Part shown: in pieces, positions 1-41,880 of the stretch
Position numbering within the stretch: the first letter of the stretch is position 1
Layout of the letters: each line of letters begins with the position of its first letter
Source of the DNA: Galeopterus variegatus
Taxonomy: Eukaryota
Direction: 5' to 3'
Assembly (NCBI RefSeq): GCF_000696425.1
Contig: NW_007726576.1
Span: 660,522-702,401, forward strand
DNA length: 41,880 bases
Made by a program: the position numbers and the translations under genes
Notes under the pieces: model-generated
What the model saw: the letters and a program-made list of their open reading frames with translations, nothing else
Databases searched by the model: none
What the model was told of the DNA's origin: nothing

Positions 1-265
1 ATCCCATAGTGAGTGGATTAATAATGGTGGTCATGAGCATGGTTCTGAGGGCTTTAAAAAAAGAGTACATGAGAGGTTAGTCTGTCTCTCTTCTACCATT
101 TTCTGCCACATGAGACCCCTGGGTCACTGTTGCCACCACCAAGACCCTCACTGGAGGGTTCCCTGGACTTTTGACTTCCTAGCCTCCAAAACTGTAAGCA
201 ATAAATTTCATTTTCTTACAAATTACCTCGTTATGTGTATTTTGTTATAAGCAACAGAAATGGAC
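1..265 (+). mobile_element. MaLR-type LTR 3' fragment (THE1/MST/MLT1-like terminus), truncated by the downstream L1
   Basis: The terminus pattern '...cttcctagcctccaaaactgtaagcaataaatttc...ttataagcaacagaaatggac' resembles the conserved 3' end of mammalian MaLR LTRs. Recognition from memory only. Confidence 0.35.
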
Positions 266-2850
266 AAATACAGACCAATAACAAACAATGATATTGAAGC
301 ACTAATCAGCAATCTCCCAACAGAGAAAAGCCCAGGACTGTATGGCTTTAGTGCTGAATTCTACCAAAACCTTAAAGAGGAATTAATACCAATACTCTTC
401 AAACTATTCCAAAAAATTGAAACATTCTCCCAAACTCTTTCTATGAGGCAGCATCACTCTGATACCAAAACCAGACAAAGATACAACAAAAAAAGAAAAT
501 TACAGACCAGTATTGTTGATGAACATAGATCCAAAAATTCTCAACAAAATATTGTCAATCAACAAAACATCAAAAAAAATTATACACCACGATCAAGTGG
601 GATTCATCCAGGGGATGCAAGGATGGCTCAATACACACAAGTCAATAAATGTCATACACCACATCGACAAAATCAAGGACAAAAACCATATGACGATCTA
701 AAGAGTTGCAGAAAAAGCATTTGACAAAACTCAACATTTTTTCATGATAAAGACTCAGCAAATTAGGTATAGAAGAAAAGTATCTCAACACAATAAAAGT
801 CATATATGACAAACAAACTCACTGCCAATATCATCTTGAATGTTCCCACTCTCATCACTCCTATTTAACACAGTATTGGAAGTACTAGCCAGAGCAAGCA
901 AGCAAGAGAAAGAAATAAAGATCATCCAGATGGGAACCTGTTTGCAGATGATGTGATGCTATATAAAACCTAAAGACTCTACTGAAAAACTCTTAGAGCT
1001 GAAAAACAATTCCAGTAAAGTTACCGGATACAAAATCAACACAAACAAATCAGTAGCATTTTTACACTCCAACAATGAACTAGCAGAAAAAGAAATCAAG
1101 AAAGCAAGCCCATTTACAATAGTCACCAAAAAAATAAAATACCTAGGAATAAATTTAACCAAGGAGGTGAAAGAGCTCTACAATGAGAATTATAAATCCC
1201 TGCTGAAAGAAATTAAAGAGGATACAAAAAGATGGAAAGACTCTGTCCATGCTCTTGGGCTGTAAGAATTAACAGTGTGAAAATGTCCATACTACCCAAA
1301 GCATTGATCTACAGATTCAATGCAATCCCCATCAAAATACCAATGACATTTTTCACGGAAACAGAAAAAACAATCCTAACATTCATACAAAACAACAAAC
1401 AGCTTCAAATATACAAAGTAACCCTCAACAACAGCCAAAATAAAGCCAGAGGCATTATACTACCTGACTTCAAATTATAGTACAAAGCTATAATATCCAA
1501 AACAGCATGGTACTGGCATAAAAACAGACACTTGGACCAATGGAACAGAAGAGAGAACCCAGACAAAGGCACCAAGAACACACATTGGGGATAAGACTGC
1601 CTCTTCAATAAATGGTTCTGGGAAAACTGGACATCCATATGCAGAAGAACGAAACTAGGCCCGTATCTTTCACCATATACCAAAAACAACTCAAAATGGA
1701 TTAAAGACTTATAAGACCTGAAACTATAAAACTCCTAAAAGAAAACATAGGGAAACACTTCAGAAAGTAGGACGGGGGGCCAAGCCCATGGCACACTCGG
1801 GAGAGTGCGGCGCTGGGAGCGCAGCAGCGCTCCTGCCATGGGTTCGGATCCTATATAGGGATGACCGGTGCGCTCACAGCGCTCACTGGCTGAGCGTGGT
1901 GCGGCCAGTCTCAAAAAGGACAAAAAAAAAAAAAAAAAAAAGAAAGAAAGTAGGACTGGGCAAAGACTTTATGAATAAGACCCCAAAAGCACAGGCAACA
2001 AGAGAAAAAATAAGCAAGTGGGAGTACATCAAACTAAAAAGCTAATGCATAGCAAAATAAACCACTAAGAGTGAAATGACAACCTACAGAATAGGAGAAA
2101 ATATTTGCAGGCTATGTATCTGACAAGGGATTAATATCAAGAATATACAAGGAACTCAAACAACTAAATGGTTAAAAAAAAAGGCAACGTGATTAAAAAA
2201 TGGATAAAAGAGCTGAATAGGCATTTCTGAAAGGAAGATATGCAAATTGCCAACAGACCCATGAAAATGTACTCAGCATCACTAAGCGTCAGGGAAATGC
2301 AAATCAAAACCACATTGATATATCATCTCACCCCAGTTAGACTGATCGTTATCAAAAAGACAGAGAATAACAAATGCTGGCAAGGATATGGAGAAAGGGG
2401 AACCCTCCTACACTGTTGATACGACTGAAAATTGGTGCAGTCGTTATAGAAAACAGTATGGAGGTTCCTCAAACAACTACAGATAGAACTGGCATATGAT
2501 CTAGCAATTCCACTGCTGAGTATATACCCAAGGGAATGGAAATTACCATGTGGAAGGGATACCTACACACCCATGTTTATCACAGCTCTATTTACAATAG
2601 CCAAGAGTTGGAACCAACCTAAATATCCATCAATGGATGACTGGATTAAGAAAATGTGGTATATATACGCAGTGGAATACTACTCAGCCATAAAAAAGAA
2701 TGAAATTCTGCCATTCATTGCAACATGGATGAGCTTGGAGAAAATCATGTTAAGTGAAATAAGCCAAGCACAGAAAGCGAAATATCTCATGTTCTCACTC
2801 ATAAGTGGGAGCTAAAAAATTAAACAAATTAAAAAAAGAAAGAAAGATTT
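266..2850 (+). mobile_element. LINE-1 fragment (3' two-thirds of ORF2 to A-rich tail), degraded
   Basis: Plus-strand translations carry L1 ORF2 reverse-transcriptase motifs ([34 protein letters not shown], ...MWYIYAVEYYSAIKKNEILPF, FSLISGS*). Multiple frameshifts and stops are present. It ends in an A-rich tail near 2830-2850. Confidence 0.85.
1774..1944 (+). mobile_element. tRNA-derived SINE, class C (~160 bp dimer-like, 'GGCCAAGCCC...GGTTCGGATCC...' head, poly-A tail), inserted in the L1
   Basis: Perfect 12-bp TSD AGAAAGTAGGAC at 1762-1773 and 1945-1956. A B-box-like GGTTCGGATCC is present, with a poly-A tail at 1920-1944. A second copy lies at 9712-9870. Confidence 0.85.
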
Positions 2851-3146
2851 TTTAAAAAGGAAAAGAAATTAGACATTCACTAACCTTTCGTTTCAGTTCA
2901 TGTGTATCACTGGAAATGAATTCAATCACGTATGGCATCTCAATAGACATAGTCAAAGAGAAGCTACCAAAAATGAGAAGAGTGTTTTAGTCTCATACCT
3001 TAAATTTTTCCTGAAGTTGTTTCACATAATTTAAAGGAAAATTTAAACCATCAAACTAATGTCCATTGAATGATTGACAAGTTTTATATTTTAAGTACTA
3101 ACCTTTGCTTTGTTCCTATTTCCTTTATACAAATCTTCTCTACTGT

Positions 3147-3660
3147 ATCCTGTTAAAGGAAAAGTATATATGGATAACTAAGTATCTATTAGTTTTTTTT
3201 GTTTTTTTTTTTGTCTTTTATCTTTTTTCCGTGTCCGGCAACGGATCGCAACCCTCAGATCCTGTTAAAGGAAAAGTATATATGGATAACTAAGTATCTA
3301 TTTGTTTTTTTTTTTGTCTTTTATCTTTTTTCCGTGTCCGGCAACGGATCGCAACCCCCAGATCCTGTTAAAGGAAAAGTATATATGGATAACTAAGTAT
3401 CTATTTGTTTTTTTTTTTGTCTTTTATCTTTTTTCCGTGTCCGGCAACGGATCGCAACCCCCAGATCCTGTTAAAGGAAAAGTATATATGGATAACTAAG
3501 TATCTATTTGTTTTTTTTTTTGTCTTTTATCTTTTTTCCGTGTCCGGCAACGGATCGCAACCCCCAGATCCTGTTAAAGGAAAAGTATATATGGATAACT
3601 AAGTATCTATTTGTTTTTTTTTTTGTCTTTTATCTTTTTTCCGTGTCCGGCAACGGATCG
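3147..3660. repeat. Tandem array, 103-bp unit x5, made of 47 bp of pre-insertion flank plus the 56-bp 3'-terminal piece of the adjacent SINE
   Basis: The period is exact at 103 bp (ORF-track starts at 3199, 3302, 3405, 3508, 3611). The unit is 'atcctgttaaaggaaaagtatatatggataactaagtatctatt' plus 'tgtttttttttttgtcttttatcttttttccgtgtccggcaacggatcgcaaccc(c/t)cag'. The last unit runs into the full SINE at 3613-3848. Confidence 0.9.
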
Positions 3661-3848
3661 CAAGCCTCAGTGTTGCCCCCGTACCGGACCGGAGACCGGC
3701 AACGGGATTGCAAACCTCGGTGTTGCTCCCGCGCCTCGCTCAGCCAGTGAGCGGGAGCCGGTCTGTATGTGGGATCCGAACCCTCGGGCGGGAGCGCCCC
3801 CGCGCTTCCCAAGCGGCGCACTATCCAGTGCGCCACCGGGCCGGCCCC
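3613..3848 (-). mobile_element. tRNA-derived SINE, class A (~230 bp, three tRNA-like units, A-rich tail)
   Basis: Reverse complement reads GGGCCGGCCCGGTGGCGCACTGGATAGTGCGCC...GGGTTCGGATCCCACATACAGACCGG...GGTTGCAATCCCGTTGC...GGTTGCGATCCGTTGCCGGACACGGAAAAAAGA. The 15-bp TSD GTATCTATTAGTTTT is at 3182-3196 and 3849-3863. Confidence 0.85.
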
Positions 3849-4562
3849 GTATCTATTAGTTTTCACATTGAGGCTCTAAACTAATGTAATTTCAGTAAGG
3901 CCACAACTGAGAACAGCAACGAGACAGCTGGTTTCAGTTCTAAGTAGTGAAACACAGAGCATTTGCTGATGTAATGACAGGAACTTCTAAAGTACAACTA
4001 ATATCAGGGAGCAATTATAACCATTTTGTCAGAGATTTTCAACTCTTACATATGCCTGTGTGCGTGTATACACACACATATGCACACACTTTTATATACA
4101 TGAGGGTACCTTGAAAATTTCATAGAATCTCTCATGAACTTTTAAAAGTGCCCTCCATACAAAGTGCTCTTCACACAAAAATATACATACAAAGTTAGGA
4201 AGTGTGGAAGGATATATACCAAAGCATTAACCAGGCCATGTATGGGCAATGGAATTAAGGATGATTTTTACTTTCTTCTTTTGGCTTATTTGCATACTCT
4301 ATGCTTATCTAAATTCTTCATGATGAACATGCAATACAGATAACAAAACGTTTTGAGTGACTGAACAAATTAAAAATCTTATGCCCATTGAACATATCTG
4401 TGTCTTTTATTCTTTTCATTTTACAGATATAATGCATCCAAATGCATAAATGCCAGTACAATTGACTTTATACACTGAAAAGATTATTTCAGATATTTTT
4501 TCTCGCCTATGCATAAACCTCCCCCAAAATGCTTCTTCATATCTTGTCTTGAACATACAAAC

Positions 4563-4727: not shown

Positions 4728-5048
4728 CTGAAACAGAAACATATGACAACTTTCAAGCCAAAAGAATCTGTTCTATGCTAGTTAATCACTCATAGTTACT
4801 CAACTTGGATTAAAATCTGCCAGGTTCTTCCTCAGAAAATGGTAATAGAACCTACAAAACACATTGGTGGTGCTAAGGAGAATCCTGGAGCCATTCCCAG
4901 TGGTAGAGACGGAGTGACATGTGCGGGAGGTGGAAGAAGAGAAGGCCCCTTGGCAGCTGCACGGGGGAGCATCACCTAATGGATCTGCACTGTGGCCTCG
5001 CACACATGGGCTTTGTCGAGTGGACGGCCTCCACACAGCCCCCTTCTT

Positions 5049-5238
5049 TTTATTTTATTTTATTTTATTTTTTTATTTTTTTTTAAAAGATGACCGGTAA
5101 GGGGATCTTAACCCTTGACTTGGTGTTGTCAGCACCACACTCAACCATTGAGCGAACCGGCCATCCCTATGTGGGATCCGAACCCGGGGCCTTGGTGTTA
5201 TCAGCACCGCACTCTCCCGAGTGAGCCACGGGCCGGCC
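5049..5238 (-). mobile_element. tRNA-derived SINE, class B (tRNA-Ile-like dimer, ~150 bp) with a (TTTTA)n-type tail
   Basis: Reverse complement reads GGGCCGGCCCGTGGCTCACTCGGGAGAGTGCGGTGCTGATAACACCAAGGCCCCGGGTTCGGATCCCACATAGGGATGGCCGGTTCGCTCAATGGTTGAGTGTGGTGCTGACAACACCAAGTCAAGGGTTAAGATCCCCTTACCGGTCATCTTTTAA. The 17-bp TSD CACACAGCCCCCTTCTT is at 5032-5048 and 5239-5255. Unit 1 resembles tRNA-Ile (GTGGTGCTAATAACGCCAAGG...GGTTCGATCCC). Confidence 0.85.
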
Positions 5239-6618
5239 CACACAGCCCCCTTCTTGAAGAACCTTTGGCCTCCCCAACCTCCACTGCTCCAGCACCAGTT
5301 CCACCCATGGCTACAGAACTAGAGAAGCTTTCTCTCAACAGACACAAGGCAGAATTGGCTGCTGCTGTGGTGGGAGAAGGTGCAGAAATGCAGAGAAGTC
5401 CCCACTGTAATGCCCAGGAGCACAGGTCCTGCCTAAGACTGAAGCTGAACAGAACACCCCTGCCCCCACCACGAGCCTAGCACCAAGTGTCAAGGAAGAG
5501 CAGTCTACCACTAGGGGAGGGACAGGAGCATGGCAAAGCCACCTCTGTGGGACAGTGTTCAGGGCCTGCTGAAAGTGAGGGTAGTGCATGAACGCCAAGG
5601 AAAGCCCTTTGGCATCCCAGGACCCACCATGCACCTGGTAATGGCAGCCCACTACTGGAGTAATTTGAAGACGATGGTGCACTGAGGGTCATAATCACAA
5701 CAAAACCCAAACTCGACTCAACTTTGTGACCCCTACACTAACAGCCTGACAGGACAGGAGTGGCCATTTCTGGCATAAATACCATTTGTTTTAGCCTCTA
5801 CTCTTCTTCTACACCCAATGTTCAGAACTCAATCACAAATTCCAAAATATACACATAAAAAAAGCAAGAAAAAAATGACCAAATGTCAAGAGATAAAGCA
5901 ATTAACAGAACAGACTCAGAGATGACCATGGCAAAAATGTATTTCAAAAAAGAAAGTGAAAGATTTTATCAGATAAGCAAAAGGTGAGAGAATTCCTTGA
6001 GAGCACCCTTGCACTGCAAAAAAAAAAAAATGTTAAAGAGAACTCTTCAAGCAGAAGGAGGATAATACCAGATGGAAATTTTTTTACTTATTTCTAATTG
6101 CTTTAAAAGACAGTTGAATATCTAGAGCAAAAAAGTAACAACATGTTGTGGGATTTATAACATATGAAGAAATAAAATACACAACAATAGCACAAAGATA
6201 TGGGGGGAAATGAAAGTATACTGTTGTGAGGTTCTCATACTATACTTGAAGTAGTGTGATATTACTTCAAGGTAGACTGTGGTAAGTGGAAGATGTACCT
6301 TGTAAAGCCTGAAGCAGTGCTGACCAATATTCCTTTCTATGATGATAAAAATGTTCTATAGATGGACTAACCAATAACACAGCCACTAGACACATGCAAA
6401 CATTTTATTTTATTTTAAAAACTAACTTAAATGTAACTAGTGGCTACTGTATTTTAACATGCAGCTTGAGAGCAAAAACCAAAAGTTGTTAAGAGAGGTA
6501 TAATTAATAAGCCAATAATGGTGATAAAAGAATCATAAAAAATACTCAGTACAAAGAAGGCAGGAAAAGAGAGGGGAAGGAACAAAGAACAAATGGGACA
6601 AACAGAAAACAACTGGCC

Positions 6619-6850
6619 TGGGCTGGCCCGGTGGCACACTGCTGCAGTACGCCGCTTGGGAGTGCGGCGGCGCTCCCGCCGAGGGTTCGGATCCCACATA
6701 CAGACCGGCCGCTCGCTGGCTGAGCGAAGCGCGGGGGCAACGCTGAGGGTTGCGATTCTGTTGCCGGTCCTGGTCCGGTACGGGCGCGACACTGAGGGTT
6801 GCGATCCGTTGCCGGTCACGAAAAAAGACAAAAAGGAAAAAAAAAAAAAG
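6619..6850 (+). mobile_element. tRNA-derived SINE, class A
   Basis: GGGCTGGCCCGGTGGCACACTGCTGCAGTACGCCGCTTGGGAGTGCGGCGGCGCTCCCGCCGAGGGTTCGGATCCCACATACAGACCGG...GAAAAAAGACAAAAAGGAAAAAAAA. The 13-bp TSD AAAACAACTGGCC is at 6606-6618 and 6851-6863. Confidence 0.9.
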
Positions 6851-9711: not shown

Positions 9712-9870
9712 TTTTTTTTTTTTTTTGTCCTTTTTGAGACTGGCCGCACCGCACTCAGCCAGTGAGCGCTTTGAGCGCACTGGCCATCCCTATACAGGAT
9801 CCGAACCCACAGAGGGAGCGCTTCTGCGCTCCCAGCGCCGCACTCTCCCGAGTGCGCCAAGGGCTTGGCC
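9712..9870 (-). mobile_element. tRNA-derived SINE, class C
   Basis: Reverse complement reads GGGCCAAGCCCTTGGCGCACTCGGGAGAGTGCGGCGCTGGGAGCGCAGAAGCGCTCCCTCTGTGGGTTCGGATCCTGTATAGGGATGGCCAGTGCGCTCAAAGCGCTCACTGGCTGAGTGCGGTGCGGCCAGTCTCAAAAAGGACAAAAAAAA. The 11-bp TSD TGATTAATCTT is at 9701-9711 and 9876-9886. Confidence 0.85.
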
Positions 9871-10019
9871 CAATTTGATTAATCTTAACGCATCTCCATA
9901 TAACATTCCAACACAAATGATCCGTCTCTCAACACTTTGGATGTCTAAAACTAGAAGAGAGTTGGAAACATTTTATACTGTACATATGTGTGTGTGTCAA
10001 ATAACATCTTTTGATTCTT

Positions 10020-12012: not shown

Positions 12013-12238
12013 TTTTTTTTTTCCTTTTTGTCTTTTTTACTGACCGGTAACGGGATCGCAACCCTCGGTGTCACGCCCGCACCGGGGACCGGCAACGGGA
12101 TCGCAACCCTCAGTGTTGCGCCCGCACCGCGCTCAGCCAGTGAGCGGGAACCGGTCTCCACATGGGATCCGAACCCTCGGCGGGAGCGCCGCCACACTCC
12201 CAAGCGGCGCACTCTCCAGTGCGCCACCGGGCCGGCCC
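12013..12238 (-). mobile_element. tRNA-derived SINE, class A
   Basis: Same structure as the SINE at 6619-6850, in reverse orientation (T-rich start, ...CACTGGAGAGTGCGCCGCTTGGGAGTGTGGCGGCGCTCCCGCCGAGGGTTCGGATCCCATGTGGAGACCGG... head GGGCCGGCCC). The 8-bp TSD CAAAGAAT is at 12005-12012 and 12238-12246. Confidence 0.9.
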
Positions 12239-12372
12239 AAAGAATATTTTTGTTTTATGATAAGGCTGCTACTCAACCCTGCATCCACAGGGACTCAGAT
12301 AACGAAGATTTCAGTAAATGGGAAATTGACTTTGAAAGCACAGAGTGGTTGCAATGCACTTTCTCCCCTTAC

Positions 12373-13380: not shown

Positions 13381-13609
13381 TTTTTTTTTTTCCTTTTTGT
13401 CTTTTTTTACTGACCGGTAATGGGATCACAACCCTTGGTGTCGCGCCCGCACCGGGGACCGGCAACGGGATCGCAACTCTCGGTGTTGTGCCCGCACCAC
13501 GCTCAGCCAGTGAGCGGGAACCGGTCTCCACATGGGATCCGAACCCTCGGCGGGAGCGCCGCCATGCTCCCAAGCAGCGCACTCTCCAGTGCGCCACCAG
13601 GCCGGCCCA
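13381..13609 (-). mobile_element. tRNA-derived SINE, class A
   Basis: Near-identical in structure to the 12013-12238 copy. The TSD is CAAGGG(G)CCCC(C)TTTT, at about 13369-13380 and 13608-13622. Confidence 0.9.
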
Positions 13610-15269
13610 AGGGCCCCTTTTAATATAAACAATTTGAGTCTCCCAAAATCATCAGGTCAGCACCCTCTTGAAGACCCAATCTCTTGCCATCCTGCAAATA
13701 AATGCCTTGCTGGCTGGCAGGAGCGATCCCTGGAACTGGGGTCTGGGCATGGCGCAGGATGACGCCAGAGGTGAGAGCCCAGGAGTTTCTCAGTTATTTG
13801 GGCAACATGGATGCATGGCAGAAGGATGGAGAGTGCCTGACAGGGAAGACACGGGGGCTGGAGGCATGCAGGTGCTGATTGGAGGGGTGTCACACACTGT
13901 CTCCTTGGCTGTGCATGGAACTCCCTCCATTTGTCTCTTGGAGTTTTCTGCAGTTTTAGCAAACCCTTGAGAGCAGCATGTGTGCTTGACCTGGATTTGA
14001 TGAATAGGATGACTATCTAATTGCACTTGGTTTAGGTGCGATTAGATAGTCAGCAGACCTTCTGCACGTGAGCTCCCCAAGGCCAGGCCTGTACCAGCCC
14101 ATTCTCTTCATACATTGTGTGAACAGGCACTCAAAAAGTCAGTCATTTTAGATAATGATGATAAAAGTATTTTTATCAGGACTTAGAACAGAAACTAATA
14201 AACTGTAAAATGTTTGACATCTTAATTTTCTTCCTTTAGATGAAACCACTATGTAACTAAGCTGAAAACATTAAACTCATTCCTAGGAGGATCGAAATGT
14301 GAGTCATGCACATGCCAGAGTCGCGGGTGGGCCTCTGCATGGATACATGAGGCCAATCTACAGGCCAGCTGTCCCATCATAAGTTATTTTTGGGTGACCT
14401 TCCCCAGGGAAGCGGCCTCTTCGGGTCTCTTGAAACAGTGCAAGTTGTGAAATCCGGAGTAAGATGCGGAGGACATATGCCTCTCCTTGTAACATACTCA
14501 TAATTTGTTTTGCAGCTACTACATGTGAAAAGAATGCCCGAGGGCCTTTACATTCGTTACATCTAATAGCCACAACACTGATGGGCAGATAGGATTATTT
14601 CCACTTTACACAGGAGGAAACTGAGGCACAAAGTAGTTAACTAACTTGCCCAAGGTCACGGCGCTAGAAAAGAAGGAGCAAGGATACAAAGCGAGGCCTT
14701 TCCAGCTCCAAGCCTTTGCTTCACAGTCTACGCCAAGCTGCACGACAGTGCAGTGGCTCCGAACCCTGATGCTGGAATTAGAATGATCTGAGTTCAGATT
14801 CCGGCTTCATCGTACTGTTCAGTATCCCTGAGCCTCAGCTTCCTCATCCAAACAACACGCATAATTATTGCACTTACCTCATACAGTTTGGGAAGAACAA
14901 AACACGCATGTGAAAAACTCAACCCAGGGCCTGATTCATAGGAAGTGGTAACCACGGTGGTTATAGCTCCCAAATAGCTCCAAAGGGACTGGCAAGTATA
15001 GAACACTGCCCACAGCCCACATCCACGTCTTCCCATCTGATGTACATCATATCAGGTGGGTATGGATCAGATGGGCCAGGGTGGGGAGGTCAGATAGAGC
15101 CAAACTGCTCTTCCCCACCCCTCCGCACCCGTTTCCCCAGTTTACGGTGATTGCTAAAATGAACCTAATTTCCTTCTAAAGGGATCAGAATATCACAGTA
15201 CTGGACTCAGACATTCTTATTCTCCTAAGAGGTCTTTATATTTGTTTGATGCAATCTTTTTTAAAAAAT

Positions 15270-15600
15270 GTATTTATATTCATTGTGCATTTTTATGGTG
15301 TACAGTTTGTTGTTTCAATACACGCATATATTGTGTGATCCACTCAGAATAATTAGCGTATCTATCACCTAAGCAGTTATCATTTCTTCCTGATTATAAC
15401 ATTCAAGAACTTTTTTTCTGGCTATCTTGAGATATACAATGCTATATTACTAGCTCTTGTCACCCTAGAGCACCAGAATTTATTCTTCCCATTGAACTGT
15501 CACTCTGTAACTTTGTACCTGTTTACCAGCTTCTGCCCATTCCCCCCCCTACCCCCAGCTTCTGAGTCTGGTAACTGGCATCTTACTCGCTCTTTCTTTC
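15270..15600 (-). mobile_element. L1 3'UTR fragment (5'-truncated), antisense
   Basis: Reverse complement resembles the L1 3'UTR region ('...tttatggtgtacagtttgttgtttcaatacacgcatat...ccccagcttctgagtctggtaac...'). A second, similar 3'UTR copy follows at 15730-16190 in the large L1. Confidence 0.55.
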
Positions 15601-15614
15601 CTTTTCTTTTTTTC

Positions 15615-15724
15615 TAATTTTTATTTATTTATTTATTTATTTAAAAGATGACCAGTAAAGGGATCTTAACCCTTGACTTGGTGTTGTCAGCACCACGCTC
15701 TCCCAAGTGAGCCACGGGCTGGCC
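15615..15724 (-). mobile_element. tRNA-derived SINE, class B short variant (~85 bp core plus (ATTT)n tail), inserted in the T-rich tail region of the adjacent L1
   Basis: Reverse complement reads GGGCCAGCCCGTGGCTCACTTGGGAGAGCGTGGTGCTGACAACACCAAGTCAAGGGTTAAGATCCCTTTACTGGTCATCTTTTAA. It lacks the ~70 bp between the two internal GGTGCTGA(T/C)AACACCAAG repeats. The same breakpoints recur in the 26007-26114 copy. Confidence 0.75.
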
Positions 15725-18700
15725 CTTCTTTTTTATTCTTTCTTAATTGACCCATGAAAATTGTATATATTTATGGAGTACAGTGTGATATTTAGGTACA
15801 TTTATACAGTGTGCAATGATTATATCAGGGGAGTTAGCATATCTATCTCCTCAAGCATCTGGCATCTCTTTGTGTTGGAAACATTCAGAATCACCTCAAT
15901 TAACCACTTGAAGTGATACAGTAATTTGTCATTGACTGTAGTCTCCCTATATTGCTATAGAACAGTAGATCTTGTGTTTCCCATCTCTCTACTGCTTTGT
16001 TTCTGTTGACTACCTTCTTCCTACACCGCCCCCGGCACCAGTCTCTAGTAACCACTATTCTACTCTCTACTTCCGTGAGATCAATTTTTTCAGCTTTCAC
16101 ATGAGTGAGAACATTCATTATTTCTCTTTCTGTGCCTGGCTTATTTCATGTACAATAATTTTCTCCAAGCTCATCCATGCTGCTGCAAATGGCAGAATTT
16201 CATTCTTTTTTTATGGCTGAGTAGTATTCCATTGTGTATATATACCACATTTTCTTTATCCAGTCATCCATTGATGGACATTTAGGTTAGTTCTGAATCT
16301 TGGCTACTGTAAAGAGAGCCGAGATAAACATGGGAGTGCAGGTATCCTTTTGACTTGTTGATTTCCTTTCCTTTGTATATATACCTATGGCTGGATCGTA
16401 TCTGTGGTTGAGAAACCTCCGTACTGTTTTTGATAATGGCTGTGCTAATTTACATTCCCACCAACAATGTATAAAAGTTCCCCTTTCTCCACATCCTTGT
16501 CAGCATTTGTTACTTTCTGTCTTTTTGATAATAGTCATTCTAAGTGGGGTAAAATGATAGCTTATTGTGGTTTTGGTTTGCACTTTTCTGGTAATTAGTG
16601 ACGTTGAGCACTTTTCCACATACCTATTGACCATTCACATGTCTTCTTTCAAGAAATGTCTATTCAGTTCCCTTGCACATTTTTAATCAAAAAAAAATTT
16701 TTTTTTACTATTGGGCTGTTTGAATTCCTCGTATATTCTGGATATGAATCCCTTTCATAGTTTGCAAATATTTTCTCCCATTCTGCAGGTTGTGTCTCCA
16801 CTTTGTTGATTTTTTCCTTTGCTGTGCAGAAGTTTTAGTTTGATATAATCCCATTTCTTTATTTTTGCTTCTGTTGCCTGTGCTTTGGGGGTCTTGTTCA
16901 TAAAGTTTTTGCCTAGTCCTATGTCTTGAAGCATTTCCCCTATGTTTTCTTCTACAAGTTTTATATTTTTGTGTCTAACATTTAAGTCTTTAATCCATTT
17001 TGAGTTGACTTTGGTATATGGTGAGAGACAGGTGTCCAGTTTCATTCTTCTGCATATGGATCTCCAGTTTTCCCAGCACCATTTATTAAAGAGACTGTCC
17101 TTTCCCCAATGTATGTTCTTCGCTCTTTTGTCAAAATTCAATTGGCTGTAGGTACATGGAATTATTTCTGGAGTCTATATTCTGTTCCACTGGTCTATGT
17201 GTGTGTTTTTGTGCCAATACCATGCTGTTTTGACTATTATAGATTTGTAGTGTAACTTGAAGTCAGGGAGTATGATGCCTCCTGCTTTGTTCTTTTTGCT
17301 CAAGATTGCTTTGGTTATTTGGGGTCTTTTGTTGTTCCATGTAAATTTTTGGATTGTTTTTTTCTATTTCAGTGAAGCATGTCATTGGTAGTTTGATGGG
17401 GATTGCACTGAATCTGTAGATTGCTTTGGGTAGTATGGCCATTTTGACAATATTGATTCTTCCAATCCATGAACATGGGATGTCTTCCCATCTTTTGTGT
17501 GTCTTCTTTAATTTCTTTAATCAGTGTTTTACATTTTTCCTCGCAGGAATCTTTCACTTCCTTGGTTAAATTTATTCCTAGGTATTTTATTCCATTTTTT
17601 TGTTGCTATTGTAAATGGGATTGTTGTCTTGATTTCTTTTCCTGATAGTTTGTTGTTGATGTGTAGAAATGCTACTGATTTTTGTATGTTGGTTTTATAT
17701 CCTGCCACTGTACTGAATTTATTCATCAGGTCTAGGAGTTTTTAGGTTTCTCTCTATATAAAATCATATCATCTGCAAACAGGGACAATTTGACTTCCTC
17801 CTTTGCAATTTGGATGCACTTTGTTGCTTTCTCTTGCCTAATTGCTCTGGCTAAGACTTCCAGTACTATGTTTAGTAAAAGTGATGAGAATGGGCATCCT
17901 TGTCTTGTTCCAGTTCTTAAAAAAAAACAAAAAAACAAAAAAACTTTCAGCTTTTCCCTGTTAGCTGTGGGTTTGTCATATATGGCCTTTATTATATGTA
18001 CATACCTTCTATACCTAATTTGTTGAGAGTGTTTGTCATTAAGTGATGTGGAATTTTATTGAATGCTTTTTCTGCATCTATCAGGCTGATCATATGGTTT
18101 TTCTCTTTCATTCTATTGATGTGATGTATTACGCTTACTGATTTTCATATGTTGAATTATCCTTGCACCCCAGGGATAAATCCCACTTGAGCATGGTGTA
18201 TAATCTTTTCGATGTGCTGTTGGATACGTTTTGCTAGTATTTTGTTGAGGATTTTTACATCTATGTTCATTAGGGATGTTGGCCTGTAGTTTTCTTTTTG
18301 TTCTTTGTTGTGTCCTTACATGGTTTTGTTAAAAAGGTAATGCTGGCCTCATAGTATGAGTGTGGAAGGATTCCATCCACTTCAATTTTTTGAAATAGTT
18401 TAAGAAGTATTGGTATTTTGGTATTACTTCTTTAAATGTTTGGTAGAATTCAGCAGTAAAGCTGTCCAATCCTGGGCTTTTCCTTGTTGGGAGACTTTTT
18501 ATTGCTGATTGAATCTCGTTACTCATTATTAGTCTGTTCAGGCTTTCTATTTCTATTGGGTCAGTGTTGGCAGGTCATATGTGTCCAGGATTTTTTCCAT
18601 TTCCTCTACATTTTCTAATTTATTGCTTATAGTCATAATTGTCTCAGATGATCCTTTGAATTTCAGTGGTATCAGCTGTAATGTCTCCTTTTGCATTTAT

Positions 18701-21470
18701 GATATTATTTATTTGGGTCTTTTATCTTTTTTTCTTGGTTAGTATAGCTAATGGTTTGTCAATTTTGTTTATCTTCTCAAAAGAACCAACTTGTTGTTTG
18801 ATCTTTTGTATTGTATTTTTAGTCTCAATTTCATTTATTTCTGCTCTGAGTTTTATTATTTATTTCTACTTATTTTGGACTTGGTTGGTTCTCTCTTTGC
18901 TAGGTTGTTTATTTGAACTCATTCTATTTTTTGATGTAGGCACTTGTTGCTATAAACTTTCCTCTTAATAGTGCCTTGGCTGTGTCCCGTAGGTTTTGGT
19001 ATCTTTTGTTTCTGTCTTCACTTATTCAAGAAATGTTTTGATTTCCTTCTTAATCTCTTCTATGACCCACTGGTCCTTCAAGAGCATGTCATTTAATTTC
19101 CATGTATTTGTGCATTTTTGAAAGCTCCTCTTGTTATTAAGATCTAGATCTATTCCATTATGGTCAGAAAACATACTTGATATGATTTTGAACTTGTTGA
19201 GACTTATTTTGCGGCCCACAATATGGTCAATTCTGGAAAATGTTCCATGTGCAGATGAAAAGAGTATGTATTCTGCAGCTATTGGATGAAATGCTCTGCA
19301 AATATCTGTTAGGTCCAGCTGGTGTATGGTGCCCTTTAAGTCCAATGTTTTGTTGTTGATTTTCTGTCTCGATGATTTGTCTAACACTGAGATTGGGATG
19401 TTATTGTCCCCAACTATTACTGTGTTAGTGTCTATCTCTCCATTTACATCTGATAATATTTATTTTATATACCTGGGTGCTCCACTGTTAGGTGCATATA
19501 TATTTGTTTTTTGGGGTTTTTTTTTGATGGCTAGCCATGGTGCGTAAATTTTTATAATTGTTATATCCTCTTGCTGTATTGATCTCTTTATCATTCTATA
19601 ATGCCCTTCCTTTCTCTTAGTACAGATTTTGATTTAAAGTCTGTTTTATCTGAGATAAGTATAGCTACTTCTGCTTGCTTTTGTTTTCCATTTGCATGGA
19701 ATACCTCATTCCATTCCTTGACTTTCAGTCTATGTGTGTTTTTGTAAGTAGGGTATGTTTCTTATTGGCAGTATATGGATGGGTCATGTTTTTTTTCTTT
19801 TTTAATCTATTAGGCCAGTCTATGTCTTTTAATTAGGGCATTTAATCCATTTACATTCAAGGTTATCATTGATATGTGAAGTCTTGCTCCTGACATTTTG
19901 TTGGTGACTGTTTTGTATTCTTTGTTCCTTTCTTTCTCTTTTATTGTTTATCCTTGTGGTTTGATATTTTCCTGTATTGATAAGGTTTGATTCCTTCATC
20001 TTTCTAATTTGTGTATCTACTCTACTAGTAATTTTATATTTTCAGGTGTTTTCATGATGTTTGCTGTACTTTCTCTTCTAGATGGAGCCCCCTAATCATT
20101 TTTTTTTTGTGGGGCTGGTCTGGTGGTGATGAATTCCCTGAATTTTTTCTTCTCTTAGAAAGACTATTTCTCCTTCATTTTGGAAGGATAGCATTGCTGG
20201 ATATAATATTCTTGGCTGGCAGTTTTTTTTTTTTCAGTACTTTGAATATACCATCCCATTCTCTCCTAGCCTGTAGGGTTTCAGCTGAGAAGTCTGCTGT
20301 TAGTCTAATGATAATTTCCTTATAAGTGACTTGATGTTTTTCTCTTGCTGTTTTTAGAATTCTCTCTTTGTCTTTAACTTTGGATAGTTTGACTACAATG
20401 TGGCTTGGAGTGGGCCCTTTTGGGTTGAATTTATTTGAGGACCTCTGAGCTTCCAGTATTTGGAAATTCATATATTTCCTAAGACTGGGGAAGTTTTCAG
20501 CTATTATTTCATTAAATAGGTTTTCAGTATCTTTTTCGTTTTCTTCTCTTTCTGGAATGCCCATAATTAGAATATTTCCTCACTTATAACATAGATCCTA
20601 TAGGCTTTGTTCGTTCTTTTTTTTTGTCTTCCTGTGTTATTTCAAAACTGCTATCTTCCAGATCAGAAATTCTTTCTTCTGCTTAATCTAGTCTGTTGTT
20701 GAGACTCTCAGATGTTATTTTTTATTTTGTTCAATGAATTCTTTAATTCCAAGATTTGATTTTTTAAATGATATTTATCTCTGTTGAATTTCTCATTCAG
20801 ATCAAGAATTATTTTTCATGATTTTGTTGAATTGTTTGTTTATATACTCTTGTATCTCAGTGAGTTTCCTTAAGATTATTAATTTGAATTCCTTTTCTGG
20901 TAAAACAGCAATTTCTGACTCTTTGGGATCAGTTACTGAAGTATTATTGCGTTTCTTTGATTGTGTCATGTTACCTTGTTTTTTTCATATTTCTTGTTAC
21001 CCTGCATTGATATCTGTGCATCTGGTAGAACACTCCCCTCTTTGAGTTTTGTAGAGTGGCTTGTGTGGGGAAAGACTTTCACCTGCAAGTGTATTCTAGG
21101 GTGTTGATCAGCAGCTGGTCTGCCAAGGGTCAGGCTACTGAGCCACTTCTTGGATAGTGGGCAAGGTCTCTAGGCAGGCCTGCAGAGGGAGCTCAGCCAG
21201 CCACTTCTCAGGTGGTGGGCAAGGCTGAATGTGGGGCTGCAGAGAGCAGGTCTGGCCAATAGCTTTTTGGGTAGTGGATGAGGCTGCTAGGTAGGCCTGC
21301 AGAGAGGGGGCCCAGGCAGCTACTTCTCAGAGGGTGGGTGAGGCCATGAGGTGGGGCTTCAGAGAGGGTTTGTCCAGCCAGCAGCTTCACGGGTGGTGGG
21401 TGAGGCCGCTGGGTGGAACTGCTGAGGATGAACTGCCTGGCTGCTTCTCTGGAAAGGCGCAGCAGTTTGA
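15725..21470 (-). mobile_element. LINE-1, near full-length (~5.7 kb), inactive: 3'UTR, ORF2 (EN/RT/C-term), ORF1, 5'UTR with monomer array
   Basis: Minus-strand ORF fragments in L1 order from high to low coordinates. ORF1 C-terminal domain at 20175-20564 (PSLRKYMNFQILEAQRS...KERILKTAREKHQVTYK). Endonuclease at 19022-19387. RT motifs at 18329-18526 and 17732-17938 ([26 protein letters not shown]...[11 protein letters not shown]). ORF2 C-terminus at 16755-17141. All are interrupted by stops and frameshifts. Confidence 0.85.
21111..21440. repeat. Tandem ~60-bp monomers (about 5 copies), putative L1 5'UTR promoter monomer array
   Basis: Repeating '(g)gcctgcagag(a/g)g(a/c)gctcagccagccacttctcaggtggtgggcaaggc...' with a period of about 58-62 bp, directly 5' of the minus-strand L1. 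This is analogous to murine L1 A/Tf monomers. Confidence 0.6.
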
Positions 21471-21929
21471 TGCAATCTTTAGTGTTAGGAGTCAATGATG
21501 AGGTCGAACTTTAGAAAACCAATTCAGTTTTGGAAAATCAAAAACTTTCCAAGCTCCACCACCACATCTGGCTGCCTACCTGCATGTGCACCCCTGAATT
21601 CTACCTTCTGTCCCAGGACCTTGGATGAACGAGCTGCGGGCTCCTGGCTGCAGTCACAGCACCAGAGCACTACAGCTCACCGTCCTGTCTACAGTAGGAC
21701 ACAGCTCCAGTTACTCCCCACTCTCCTGGATCATCAGTTTTTCTCTCCCACACCAGCTTACACATATTATTCTTACATCTTAAAAGAAAAAAGAAAAAAA
21801 CTCAGCCTCACTTCTCTTCAGCTACTGTCCCACTTTCTCTCTTCTGTCTCCCAATTCTTTCCTCCCATTCTCTCTCTAACTCACTCTAACCAGGCTTTCG
21901 CCCTCACCTCTCCATTAAAAAGATGATGG

Positions 21930-36700: not shown

Positions 36701-36928
36701 GGGGCCGGCCCGGTGGCGCACTGGATAGTGCGCTGCTTGGGAAGCGCGGCGGCGCTCCCGCCCGAGGGTTCGGATCCCACATACAGACCGGTTCCCGCTC
36801 ACTGGCTGAGCGAGGCGCGGGAGCAACACCGAGGGTTGCAATCCCGTTGCTGGTCCCGGTCCGGTACGGGGGCAACACTGAGGGTTGCGATCCGTTGCCG
36901 GACACGGAAAAAAGACAAAAAAAAAAAA
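36701..36928 (+). mobile_element. tRNA-derived SINE, class A
   Basis: GGGGCCGGCCCGGTGGCGCACTGGATAGTGCGCTGCTTGGGAAGCGCGGCGGCGCTCCCGCCCGAGGGTTCGGATCCCACATACAGACCGGTTCCCGCTCACTGGCTGAGCGAGGCGCGGGAGCAACACCGAGGGTTGCAATCCCGTTGC...GGACACGGAAAAAAGACAAAAAAAAAAAAAAA. The 13-bp TSD AAAGTTTGCTGCT is at 36688-36700 and 36929-36941. Confidence 0.9.
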
Positions 36929-37173
36929 AAAGTTTGCTGCTCCACAAGCAGACACATGCATACGAGAGTGTTGGCAGCTTTCTGATTTTAAACCCTACTA
37001 CAACACTGTGGCAGGCCCTATGGTTGCAATCCCGTTGCTGGTCCCGGTCCGGTACGGGGGCAACACTGAGGGTTGCGATCCGTTGCCGGACACGGAAAAA
37101 AGACAAAAAAAAAAAAAAAGTTTGCTGCTCCACAAGCAGACACATGCATACGAGAGTGTTGGCAGCTTTCTGA
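36835..37173. repeat. Duplicated block: the SINE 3' half plus 56 bp of 3' flank (36835-36985) repeated at 37022-37173, with a 36-bp filler (36986-37021) between
   Basis: 'ggttgcaatcccgttgctggtcccggtccggtacgggggcaacactgagggttgcgatccgttgccggacacggaaaaaagacaaaaaaaaaaaaaaagtttgctgctccacaagcagacacatgcatacgagagtgttggcagctttctga' occurs twice. The filler 'ttttaaaccctactacaacactgtggcaggccctat' matches 38963-38998 with one mismatch. Confidence 0.85.
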
Positions 37174-37174
37174 C

Positions 37175-37359
37175 ATGCTATTTAGCATCTCCGTGAGAAG
37201 AACAAACCACTTGACATATTTGCTCTGATAAACAGCATTTTTCTTTTCAACCTTCTGGATAATTTCATGCTCACTAAGAAGAATGTGTGGAATTACTCCA
37301 GAGGAGTCCAAGAAACGTACCTCTAGCCAGCTGTTCACATCTTTCTTTTCAAGCTCCAC
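37175..37359 (-). CDS. PARP4: Candidate PARP4 helical-domain exon, donor tentative. Translation: VELEKKDVNSWLEVRFLDSSGVIPHILLSEHEIIQKVEKKNAVYQSKYVKWFVLLTEMLNS
   Basis: Acceptor gattttcacag|GTGGAG. The 61-codon open frame resembles my memory of human 'IEELKKQGFLLREHFTPEATQLASEQLQALLLEEVMNSS' (ELEKK / LLSEH / LLTEMLNS). Only a weak donor, AGCAT|gtcaga at 37174, is available, and it sits directly beside the duplicated block. Confidence 0.4.
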
Positions 37360-37446
37360 CTGTGAAAATCTGCATTTTGTGGCTTTGAGGCACGGGAAAA
37401 CATCTACTTGGGAATAAGCTGAGATCGTGAATTGTGTGTTTTTTTT

Positions 37447-37530
37447 TCACAGCTGGCCAGTATGGGGATCTCAACCAGTGATCTCAGTGTTATAAGACTG
37501 TGCTCTAGCCAACTCAGTGAACCTGCCAGC
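37447..37530 (-). mobile_element. Old, diverged class B-like SINE fragment
   Basis: 'agctggccagtatggggatctcaaccagtgatctcagtgttataagactgtgctctagccaactcagtgaacctgccagccc' parallels the reverse complement of the class B SINE (gatgaccggtaaggggatcttaaccc...gtgagccacgggccggccc). Confidence 0.3.
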
Positions 37531-39349
37531 CCTGCGAATGTGTTTTATTTGTGAGCTATGGCAGAAATGCAGATTGACTTAACCTTTCCCTGAAGACAGT
37601 CAGGGTGAAGGCACAGCCTTTATGAAGAACAAGGTGACATGGCTCACACAAACATGGTGTCAACCACCAAGTTACTGAAGTTTACATTACTTAACTGCTA
37701 TGTCCTTCCAAAGTGAGTTAAGACCTCATGCTTCGTCAGAAAAGGACTTGAAGGGAAACTCTTATATGTAAGGTTTACAACTAGCCATAGACAGCCTACA
37801 ACATGAAATGCACAATCATGTAAAATAAGATATTCTATTACACAGTCACACAATACACACAGCACATTCCGAGTGCATGTGCGTTTGTGTAGAGATGGCA
37901 CTAAAATTTCTAGCACAGGAATACCTGTTTCCACAATAACTGATGCCCATAAAGATATTTCACAGTCTGAAATCATGGAATTCTAAGAGTTTACATGGGA
38001 TGTTTAACACAGAACCAGCAATTGGTCCACACAACTCTGAATTATTCACTGTATCTTCAAAGTAGTATGAGCTACTTAAAAGGGAAACTGTAAGGTCTAA
38101 CAGCACAGGTCTGGGAAGGTGAAAGGGGCATAGACTAAGGCTGCCTGGTAGGTAGGTCAGTGTCCAGGACCTGCTGCCCAGTGAGGAAGCCAGCAGGAAA
38201 GCCTGGCTGGGACGGCACCACCTGGGGAGAGGCAGGCACCTGCTGTGTCCACAGGAGGGGGGTCTGGAAGAACCTTCCACACACGTTTCCTCTGGAGGAG
38301 GCACTGTGAGTGGTGGCTTTTCAAAAGGCCCTTTGTACTGGTAGCTGTCCTTGGGTTTTGGTGGTTTCAATGGTTGCTGCTGTTTCTTCCAAGAAAAGAG
38401 GAGGTGATACACTCCTGTTTCCATCGTCCTTTCTTGCAGTCAATGCCACAGGCAAAAAATGCAGGCACCAAGACACCTGACCAGAGAAGCAGTGACCAGC
38501 ATTGCACAAAGACCAGGGCTCATGCCAGCACCAGCTTCCACAGGATGCCCCACTTCAAACCAGAGGTTTAGTTCATGTCACAGAAGCACATGCCATGAAG
38601 TTACGGTTTCTGATGAACAGATCAGTGTGAAAAATGAAGAGAAGGCTGTATTTCCACAGAAGCAGCTCATCTGGAAAACACCCCAAAGCATCTGATACTG
38701 CTTTTTGGATGAAGTTTATCTGGCAGACTCTGATGAACAGGGGAGGCTGGTCTTGATTCAAAAATTAAGATTACTCCCACATTTCCAAGTTTTCAGAGAC
38801 ATTCGGCTTTGGGGGTCTTCATGCTGGGGGGCCTTATCCCTTGCTCACAATCTGTTTAATGGTGTCAAGGAGCTGCAAGCGCCAGGAGGCACAGTGCTCG
38901 GGGTGAACGGGGGAGGGCCAGAGCACATCCCTGTCAATAAAGCTTGTTCAGATACATCATTCTTTTAATCCCTACTACAACACTGTGGCAGGCCCTATCA
39001 TCCTCACTGTACAGCTGAGAAAGTGAGGCTCTGAGAAGTTAAATCAATTGCTCAAGATCCCACAGCGAGGAGGGATAGTGACTGTGATATGATGAAAATA
39101 TGTATTTGGACTTCGTCCTCCTCTCCTGGCACACAACTCCTAAAATCCTTAGAATCTCCAAAGTGGTAAGAGTCTCTTCATATGCTGACAATGGCTGGCA
39201 GCCCCCTAGGTAGCTTCAGGATGGGTCTGGTCGCAGGAAAGCCCAAGACCGGACTGAAGGTTGTGACTTCCAGTCCCACCCACAACCTCCTGAGAGGGGA
39301 GAGGGGCTGAAGGTTAATTCGATCACCAGAGGCCAGTGGTTTAATCAAT

Positions 39350-39900
39350 CATGCCTATGTAATGAAGCCTCCATAAAAACCCAAGATGCTGGAGTCTGGA
39401 CAGCTTCCAGATAGCCAAATACATGGAGATTCCCGGAGGGTGGGCCCAGGGAGGGCATGGAAGCCCCGTGCCCCTCCCCCACACCTCGCGCTATGTGTTT
39501 CTTTGTATGTTTTGTAATGCCCTTTATAATAAACTGGTAAACGCAAGTATGGGTTTCCCTGAGTTCTATGAGCCACTAAGCAAATTAATCGAACCCAAGG
39601 AAGGGGTTGTGGGAACCCCAATTTATAGCTAGTTGGTTAGAAGTTCTAGAGGCCTGGACTTGTGACTGGCATCTGAGATAGGGGCAGTCCTGGGGACTGA
39701 GCCCTCAACCTGGGGGATCTGATGCTCTCCAGGTAGATAGTGTTGGAATTGAATTGGAGGATACCCAGCTAACATCCACTGTGGAATCGATTGCTTGTTT
39801 GCTGGTGGAGAGAAATCCCCACACACTTGGTCACAGAAGTTGGTCTTCTGTGATGCTTGTTGTGCATGAGAACAGAGGAAGGAGTGTGTGTTCTTTCCCA
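39350..39900 (+). mobile_element. Possible ERV-type LTR relic
   Basis: '...tgtaatgccctttataataaactggtaaacgcaagtatgggtttccctgagttctatgagccactaagcaaattaatcgaacccaaggaagggg...' looks like an LTR U3/R region with a poly-A signal. The call is weak. Confidence 0.2.
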
Positions 39901-40239
39901 CTCACACAGTGACTAAATGGGATCTTGGGATCATTAGACTTCAAGTCCAATTCTGCTTTAAAAATTCATTAACTGTGTTCTGTATACCAGGCTCTGTATT
40001 AGGTTTGAAAGATACAAAGATGAGTAAGACATGGGTCCCTTCCGTTCATCTATTCATAGGTACTGGAGCTTGGAGGAGGGACCACAGCTCCTGGTGATAT
40101 GAATTAGGTTTAGTCTATGAGCTTATTGCTTTAGGATCTTTGAGACTGAGGAGCCACTGAAGAGGAGCTCTGGCCTCTCTGCTTCCAAGCATCTTCATGA
40201 CCTTGGTGTGGGGCGGGCCTTCCTAACTGTAACTCAAAT

Positions 40240-40850
40240 CCACCAGCCAGAAAATAAAAGATTAATGCATTTTTCTATATAAAAGCAAAAAACTTCTATA
40301 TGGTAGAAACAAAACAAGCCAACCACCAGCAGCACCAACAAAAATTTATCATAAGGAAAATAAGACAAACTGGGAAAATGTTTGCAGCTCATATCACAGA
40401 CTATGGGCTTACCTCAGATATAAAGAGCTCTTAAAAGTCATGAAGAAAAATATCAAGATCCATAAGAAAAAAGGCAAAGGACATGAACAGACAGTCCACA
40501 GAAGAAGAAACATGTCCCTTAATCATTTGGAAAGGTGCTCAGCCTCAGAAGAGTGAGAGGCCATATCTCGTCCATACCACTGGCAGAAGTCTAAGAGTCT
40601 GACAAACATGCCTCCGTAAGACTACAGGAAACAGAAACTCTCATCCTTTGATAGTGGGAGGGCAAAATGGTACAAAACTTATGAGGGAATCAGACAATAT
40701 CTATCAAAATTACAGATGCATTTATCTACTTCTAGGACCCTATGCCAGGGACACCCTGTAAAGTATGAAATGACAGGAATACGAGGTTATTCATTGTGAC
40801 ACTGTTTATGGTAGCAATACCCTGAAACAACAATATCCAAATGTCTGGCG
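40240..40850 (+). mobile_element. Older L1 ORF2 3' fragment, interrupted at 40850 by the nested L1
   Basis: The translation resembles the L1 ORF2 C-terminal region (…HFSKEDIQMANRHMK…[10 protein letters not shown]…GTLLHCWW…, compare 'KGKGHEQTVHRRRNMSLNHLE...'). It stops at 'ccaaatgtc', the equivalent of 'aaatatccatcaatgg' at 2621-2636 in the first L1. Confidence 0.7.
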
Positions 40851-41528
40851 ACCTGCCGAGCGGAGGCGGGGAGGGGCGGGGGTGCAGAGGTGCTGCCACC
40901 GGGGCGAGCCAGTCGGGAGCGCGTGAGGCGTCGGGAGGCTGAGCCCCGCAGCGAGTCCCCTACGTGCACTCGCCGCCCGCCAGCCACCATGGCGTTTCTC
41001 CTGCGCGTGGTGCTCCTCCTGTGCGGAGTCGCCGGCATTAGCAGCCAAGCAGCGCAGCGCCATGTTGGATGCTCTGCTGGTTGAGTGAAGAAAATCCACC
41101 GGCATCGCCTGAGCCCCGCACCCGAGAAGGGCACCGCTTCCCCCGGGGAGGGGGACAAAGACTCCCCGCCCCCGGCCCATGAGGATATTGCGTGAAAGGC
41201 TCAGCGGCTGCAGCAGGAACCGGACTGGCACCGGGGCGGCAGCAGCAGCGGCAGCAGCAGTACCGCCTCCTCACCCAGTGGCGACAGCAGCGGCGGCGGC
41301 AGCTGCGGCCCCTCCTCACCCGAACATCAGGGCCCTCCAGACCCAGGTGCCCCAACATATGGAGCCGAGCGGGAGCCAACGGGCGGCGGCCGCACTCAGA
41401 CCGGGGACTCCGCGCGCTGCCCCGGATTCTCCTCTGAGTCTGCTGCTCTGTTCATTAGACTGCCCAGTGGAACAGAAGACACTCTGCTCATTTCATCTGA
41501 TCTGTGGACTGTGAAACCCCCAGCCACA
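40851..41528 (+). promoter_or_regulatory. CpG-rich L1 5'UTR / internal promoter candidate, with no monomer array
   Basis: Very high CpG and G+C content, with (CAG/CGG)n-like runs. It lies immediately 5' of the ORF1 ATG and begins exactly where the older L1 is interrupted. Confidence 0.45.
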
Positions 41529-41587
41529 ATGAACAAACATCAAAGAAAAGATACCAGAAATACAAAAAATCAAGAAAGTACACCACC

Positions 41588-41756
41588 ATGGGCCGGCCTG
41601 TGGCTCACTCGGTAGAGTGCGGTGTTGATAACACCAAGGCCACGGGTTCGGATCCCATATATGGGATGGCCGGTTTGCTCACTGGCTGAGCGTGGTGCTG
41701 ACAACACCAAGCCAAGTGTTGAGATCCCCTTACCGGTCATCTTTAAAAAAAAAAAA
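41588..41756 (+). mobile_element. tRNA-derived SINE, class B, inserted in L1 ORF1
   Basis: GGGCCGGCCTGTGGCTCACTCGGTAGAGTGCGGTGTTGATAACACCAAGGCCACGGGTTCGGATCCCATATATGGGATGGCCGGTTTGCTCACTGGCTGAGCGTGGTGCTGACAACACCAAGCCAAGTGTTGAGATCCCCTTACCGGTCATCTTTAAAAAAAAAAAA. The 14-bp TSD GAAAGTACACCACC is at 41574-41587 and 41757-41770. Removing it restores the ORF1 frame. Confidence 0.9.
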
Positions 41757-41880
41757 GAAAGTACACCACCAAAAGATAATAAATCTCAAGCTCTAGATCC
41801 TATAGAACAAGAAGCCCTTGAAATGACTGACAAGGAATTTTGAGTGATAATTCTAAGGAAACTGAATGAGATACAAGAAA

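Follow-up and report, generated by a model that had tools for sequence, protein, structure and literature searches.

Isoleucine tRNA-derived short interspersed elements in a PARP4 region of probable colugo origin

What are the repeats that crowd the 41,880-nucleotide stretch of genomic DNA analysed here (hereafter the window), and from which lineage does a genome carrying them come? A preliminary description of this stretch recognized three classes (A, B, and C) of tRNA-like short interspersed elements (SINEs) in it and attributed them to a colugo (Dermoptera). We searched the window by blastn, using one copy of each type as the query together with consensus sequences built in the window, and then by nhmmer with profile hidden Markov models built from the copies. 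Fourteen clear copies and two old fragments were obtained with both programs (Table 1): seven copies of class A (plus two partial tandem copies), three class B dimers, two copies of class C, and two monomers. The 40-mer quoted in the preliminary description was found exactly at 5173-5212 (−) and with two mismatches at 41617-41656 (+), while shuffled sequence gave no match to it. Together with target-site duplications (TSDs) far beyond chance, this indicates that the SINEs first noticed are real. Classes A, B, and C are all present as described, and a fourth, monomeric class had been missed. Cross-matches between the classes were obtained in the nhmmer and blastn searches with E values of 1e-11 to 1e-19. 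Since classes A, B, and C and the monomers match one another, they belong to one superfamily. These results indicate that the SINEs described here are a single, lineage-specific superfamily derived from tRNA-Ile, with at least 14 insertions into the region of the gene PARP4.

The mode of insertion was read from the flanks of the copies. A repeat of the 5′ flank was sought after the A tail of each copy, and the 5′ flank paired with the 3′ flank of another copy served as the control. TSDs of at least 10 bp were present in 12 of the 14 copies (8 perfect and 4 with one mismatch), and the two monomers had TSD-like matches of 7-8 bp only. In the control, 157 of 182 mismatched flank pairs gave no match at all, and the best score was 11. 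All five TSDs quoted in the preliminary description were found at the copies to which they had been assigned. Its statement that all complete copies have perfect TSDs goes slightly too far, given the four duplications with a mismatch and the short matches of the monomers. The copies all terminate in A-rich tails, which are 12-40 nt long. At their 5′ edge, the TSDs have junctions reading TT/AAAA (twice), TT/AAGA, TC/AAGA (twice), TC/AGAA (twice), and similar others. Sites resembling TT/AAAA are those preferred by the L1 endonuclease. The TSDs, the tails, the target sites, and the L1 copies in the window all agree with the insertion by the L1 machinery that had been proposed.

Orthologous contigs carrying PARP4 exon and intron sequence from other mammals were taken from Logan (L001 from SRR15041666; L002-L005 from SRR28250801/218/258/856), and their intron DNA was 70-81% identical to the window. 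A 653-bp insert at 3196-3848, composed of the class A copy at 3647 and a tandem array, was absent from three of them (L001, L002, and L004). Each of the three aligned with the window on both sides of the insert and had a single copy of the target, so that the empty site is clean. In the case of the class B insertion B5085, the alignment with orthologous contigs was only suggestive of an empty site. These results demonstrate insertion with target-site duplication.

To assign the elements to a tRNA, each SINE unit was scored against a panel of 22 hand-written human tRNA sequences. The best match of the monomer and of each class B unit was tRNA-Ile(AAT), with scores of 63-70, whereas the next isotype reached 35-44 and the maximum among 200 shuffles was 33. 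The earlier reading of class B as two tRNA-Ile-like units therefore holds. Unit 2 of class B folds as a textbook cloverleaf (z=-2.8). The Rfam tRNA model scored above its gathering threshold at two units, and at E<=1 Rfam yielded tRNA matches only. The anticodon loop is CTGATAA in unit 1 and CTGACAA in unit 2 of class B. Because of the latter loop, ARAGORN reads class B unit 2 as tRNA-Val(GAC), and it made two such calls in all (5089-5163 and 31534-31608). These calls are SINE units within PARP4 introns, not genes.

Classes A and C are built differently from class B. In their first unit, the D and anticodon arms are replaced by two long GC hairpins (z=-3.6). Class A had been described as three units; according to Tandem Repeats Finder (TRF), the "third unit" is not a full unit but the 3′ half of unit 2 duplicated in tandem over 45 bp, so that the element has two units plus this duplication. 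In the monomer, dimer, and longer forms alike, the A tail follows the last unit directly. No 7SL-related sequence was detected in the window by Rfam at E<=1 (no Metazoa_SRP) or by blastn with Alu, B1, and 7SL, and no Alu core was present within three mismatches, in line with the earlier statement that a 7SL-derived domain is absent. The SINE 5′ end (GGCCGG..CGTGGCTCAC, ACTCGGGAG) was also considered as a relative of Alu or 7SL; this was ruled out, as neither Rfam nor blastn gave support. The tails of the class B copy at 5089 (5040-5088) and the monomer at 15645 (15590-15645) consist of TCTTT followed by repeated AATAAA, and the other class B tails contain no AATAAA. This arrangement is the Pol III terminator plus polyadenylation signal of "T+" SINEs, reportedly described by Borodulina & Kramerov.

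In the window, class A gives a consensus of 199 bp with 28 CpGs; each copy retains 21-24 of them, which indicates that the copies are young. The non-CpG divergence of class A was 0.7-2.1% in three copies and up to 9.9% in the oldest, and class B copies differed from their own consensus by 2-4%. The copies at 30983, 32880, and 36702 are the youngest. At ordinary mammalian rates, class A would be between a few million and some ten million years old. The description of the activity as relatively recent is thus fair for class A.

The host gene is PARP4. It was located by tblastn at 2880-34952 (−) as 11 intact exons bounded by splice sites, with approximate boundaries. The joined exons encode a 459-residue protein with PARP catalytic and VIT domains (Pfam), which aligns end to end with residues 351-808 of human PARP4 (PDB 11jf_P; E=3.7e-277) with 89.3% identity and one single-residue indel. 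On this basis, the window comprises some 32 kb of a placental-mammal PARP4 gene and the upstream intron. An identity of 89.3% would suit a close relative of primates but does not discriminate among lineages. When the PARP4 exons were searched against the protein collection, fragments from other mammals were obtained; the best single exon was 91% identical, and nothing matched at 100%, which means that this collection lacks the source species at this locus.

The CYN family (CYN-I/II/III), also called t-SINE, was reportedly defined from colugos by Schmitz & Zischler in 2003 and by Piskurek et al. in 2003. As described then, it is said to originate from isoleucine tRNA, to occur as monomers, dimers, and trimers, to have no tRNA-unrelated part, and to be restricted to Dermoptera. 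The two papers (PMID 12878470 and PMID 12885966) are cited in PMC3531059 and PMC1395351. The window elements resemble the family in the following structural respects: the head is derived from isoleucine tRNA (class B units and the monomer, at the scores given above), the body consists of tRNA-related units only and has no CORE or LINE-derived region, with classes A and C related by descent alone, monomers, dimers, and longer forms coexist, and an A-rich tail and TSDs are present. No feature is known to differ; in the window, the "trimer" is two units with a 45-bp partial duplication, and the first unit of classes A and C has expanded GC hairpins where a D/anticodon region would be recognizable. 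Since the tRNA-Ile origin, the coexisting monomer, dimer, and longer forms, and the lack of an unrelated body match CYN/t-SINE, the genome is most likely that of Galeopterus or Cynocephalus. The split between these two genera has been dated to about 11 or 18 Ma.

The SINEs of other mammals provided the comparison. Pure tRNA multimers had been held to be unique to Dermoptera, which is too strong: armadillo DAS and mosquito Twin are tRNA multimers as well, although not tRNA-Ile-derived. It would be very unusual for 42 kb of genic DNA from a primate, rodent, tree shrew, or rabbit to lack the SINEs of its own lineage. The Alu/B1/Tu-type SINEs of primates, rodents, and tree shrews are likewise mobilized by L1 and have A tails and TSDs, but differ by their 7SL sequence. 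Rodent ID, camelid vic-1, and armadillo DAS-I/II/III share with the window elements a build of head and tail only, a poly(A) or A-rich tail, and L1-type TSDs, and differ in being derived from tRNA-Ala; the "simple SINE" class is understood here as in the SINEBase paper (PMC3531059). The labelled Tupaia SINE in the supplement of PMC9141288 had no match in the window. The rabbit C repeat from the same supplement has the first ~23 nt in common with the window elements (GGCC.GC.CCGTGGCTCACT; 87-91% over 23 nt), and its remaining ~300 nt are absent from the window. With hand-written consensus sequences, CAN, VES, ERE, PRE-1, BOV-A2, SOR, B2, ID, AfroSINE, and DAS gave matches to the A tail only and none to the body, while MIR, the positive control of this screen, matched the window.

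We also searched for the SINEs outside the window. Peptides read from class A had no relative among 1.84 billion protein representatives, and SINE-read peptides gave nothing in two word-indexed searches, although in the first of these low-complexity words may have filled the list of 8000 candidates. Because the collection does contain PARP4 exon open reading frames (ORFs) of other mammals, the absence of the SINE peptides points to a poorly sampled lineage. Exact SINE motifs were found neither in JGI metagenome contigs nor in GTDB genome contigs, and an ORF unique to the window had no exact counterpart on record in public assemblies. A motif search for a CYN consensus sequence in the text and the partial supplements of colugo-related literature found none.

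Two other explanations of the elements have to be weighed. The ARAGORN calls of tRNA-Val(GAC) and the Rfam tRNA matches above the gathering threshold at two sites are what would be expected of tRNA genes or pseudogenes, and similar copies could in principle be spread by segmental duplication. However, flanks and TSD differ from copy to copy, the flanks being unrelated, every copy has an A-rich tail, the head-to-tail units share diagnostic changes relative to tRNA-Ile, and orthologous loci show an empty site. A tRNA gene cluster or a segmental duplication was ruled out on these grounds, and we regard this explanation as extremely improbable. The choice of lineage is less firm. An L1-mobilized tRNA-Ile SINE could come from a mammal outside Dermoptera, for example one of a poorly sampled order or one with an undescribed family. 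Laurasiatherian, Afrotherian, and Xenarthran SINEs were excluded only by hand-written consensus sequences, and horseshoe-bat Rhin-1 and the pangolin SINEs lay outside the comparison. Such a source is nevertheless rather unlikely, as the tRNA-Ile origin, the coexisting forms, and the absence of an unrelated body are together said to define CYN/t-SINE, and as the window lacks 7SL SINEs while its PARP4 is 89% identical to that of human and none of the order-specific SINEs tested matched.

Several points weigh against the explanation preferred here, including the assignment to the CYN/t-SINE family and to a colugo. Both the family and the species assignment rest on published descriptions rather than on compared sequence. 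The tRNA panel and most of the consensus sequences of the excluded SINEs were written out by hand rather than copied from a database. Individually, the units of classes A and C were not significant against any tRNA of the 22-sequence panel. The statement that the elements consist only of tRNA-like units is overstated for classes A and C, whose units are tRNA-related only via their homology with class B. The age figures rely on consensus sequences from only 2-7 copies, and subfamily differences inflate the divergence. Finally, the 18 colugo rows of the PMC9141288 supplement contain none of the window SINE motifs. This last absence carries no weight because the human and galago rows of the supplement likewise contain no Alu motif; the curated alignments simply avoid young SINEs. 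On balance, and with no observation contradicting it, a colugo origin of the window is probable.

Taken as a whole, the account that we consider likely is that of an intron stretch of PARP4 from a placental mammal, probably a colugo, into which L1 copied tRNA-Ile SINEs of the CYN/t-SINE family. The elements consist of one or two tRNA-like units; in classes A and C these have been reshaped as long GC hairpins, and class A has gained the additional 45-bp duplication. The tRNA-like units contain motifs resembling an A and a B box, from which RNA polymerase III would transcribe the elements. The A-rich tail of the transcripts would then allow the L1 ORF2 protein to copy them into nicks at TT/AAAA-like sites by target-primed reverse transcription, which would leave TSDs of 8-19 bp. 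The preliminary interpretation thus keeps its tRNA derivation, L1 mediation, and recent activity, and loses the three units of class A, the purely tRNA-like build of classes A and C, and the uniqueness to Dermoptera.

If the assignment is right, these are insertions of a known family into ordinary intronic sites, with the behaviour already described for it. Its existence, its tRNA-Ile origin, and its confinement to colugos were reportedly all published in 2003, and the present results leave that picture unchanged. The analysis is chiefly of value as annotation, as it identifies the repeats of the window and its probable source. SINE insertions confined to one lineage, when they have clean TSDs and empty sites, serve well as presence/absence markers, and colugos are important for the phylogeny of the primate sister group.

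Three of the seven class A copies bear tandem duplications of 99-100% identity, each with one breakpoint inside the GC-rich 3′ part of the SINE (TRF). The array at 3198-3670 (−) consists of 4.6 copies of a 103-bp unit (99% identical) and is absent from the orthologous loci. Its unit begins with the 3′ 40 bp of the SINE plus the A tail, continues through the TSD, and takes in 42 bp of intron; this last part holds a polypyrimidine tract and an AG and reaches 3 nt into the PARP4 exon at 3152-3105. The unit thus carries a splice acceptor, and the array would place four extra acceptors ~45-460 bp upstream of the true one. The duplication at 32917-33257 (171 bp x2.0, 99%) has its breakpoint within the class A SINE, and that at 36834-37173 (188 bp x1.8, 100%) repeats the 3′ part of the SINE, the tail, and the flank.

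Whether these duplications belong to the genome or to its assembly is an evenly balanced question. Near-perfect identity (99%, 99%, and 100%) is what assembly or gap-filling errors would produce, and every breakpoint lies inside a GC-rich, hairpin-prone SINE of a kind that short-read assemblers handle poorly. The public colugo assembly is Illumina-based and gap-filled, which applies here only if it is the source of the window. On the other hand, the window has no runs of N, and structured repeats do undergo replication slippage. That the duplications are real and that the GC-rich, hairpin-forming class A SINE is a hotspot for local tandem duplication is a tentative idea that we hold to be somewhat doubtful. 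If it were true, the extra acceptors at 3198-3670 could disturb or diversify PARP4 splicing.

Table 1 SINE copies, PARP4 exons, and L1 elements located in the window.
Feature	Position	Strand	Evidence and remarks
Class A SINE	3647-3848	−	nhmmer E=7e-61; TSD AAAACTAATAGATAC: 5′ copy immediately above 3848; 3′ copy past the tandem array, at 3181-3195
Class A SINE	6620-6817	+	TSD GAAAACAACTGGCC; blastn, nhmmer
Class A SINE, older subfamily	12042-12239	−	12-bp TSD with 1 mismatch; nhmmer
Class A SINE, older subfamily	13412-13609	−	Non-CpG divergence 9.9%; TSD AAAAGGGG plus more; nhmmer
Class A SINE, youngest	30983-31180	+	Non-CpG divergence 0.7%; perfect 16-bp TSD AGAAAGTTCATGAAAA
Class A SINE	32880-33077; partial tandem copy 33086-33248	−	171-bp tandem duplication of the 5′ 161 bp; outer TSD AATGTTTTGG
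Class A SINE	36702-36901; partial copy 37017-37089; whole feature to 37173	+	TSD AAAAAGTTTGCTGCT; duplication with 188-bp period
Class B dimer	5089-5240	−	Perfect 15-bp TSD AAGAAGGGGGCTGTG; unit 2 called tRNA by ARAGORN and Rfam
Class B dimer	31453-31608	+	Perfect 13-bp TSD AACATGGTCTCTG; nhmmer
Class B dimer	41589-41742	+	Perfect 17-bp TSD AAGAAAGTACACCACCA; lies 60 bp into L1 ORF1
Class C SINE, older; two units, second truncated	1776-1906	+	TSD AGAAAGTAGGAC; host sequence is L1; nhmmer
Class C SINE, older	9742-9872	−	14-bp TSD with 1 mismatch; nhmmer
Monomer SINE, one tRNA-Ile-like unit	15645-15727	−	Rfam tRNA, 33.1 bits; AATAAA-rich tail
Monomer SINE	26046-26127	−	nhmmer
Old SINE fragments	34649-34708 and 37452-37533	− (both)	nhmmer/blastn
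PARP4 exons	34952-34794, 30526-30377, 28829-28734, 25668-25480, 25238-25083, 23854-23711	−	tblastn
PARP4 exons	12504-12380, 11343-11255, 4727-4563, 3152-3105, 2965-2880	−	tblastn
L1, 3′ part	~1-2860	+	Class C SINE at 1776-1906 inserted in an L1
L1, near full-length, broken ORFs	~16000-21500 (approximate)	−	ORF1 RNA-binding domain 20175-20564, Pfam Transposase_22 E=2e-21
L1, 5′ end, leaves the window	~40850-41880	+	CpG-rich 5′ untranslated region; ORF1 ATG at 41530; identified by its ORF1-like N-terminus alone

Besides these SINEs, the window holds three L1 copies, none demonstrably intact, and MIR fragments. Outside the young repeats, the observed/expected CpG ratio of the window is 0.1-0.4. 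In the 5′ untranslated region of the L1 at 40850, it is 0.67, and a 45-bp x1.9 repeat lies at 41235-41321. This L1 appears to have been inserted into the 3′ end of an older L1. The 5′ untranslated region of the broken L1 contains a 60-bp x4 tandem repeat (21177-21416; 64% matches) that resembles L1 promoter monomers. MIR is an ancient pan-mammalian SINE, and with a hand-written consensus its fragments were observed at 14594-14670, 14825-14883, 27704-27796, 28033-28175, and 25748-25775.

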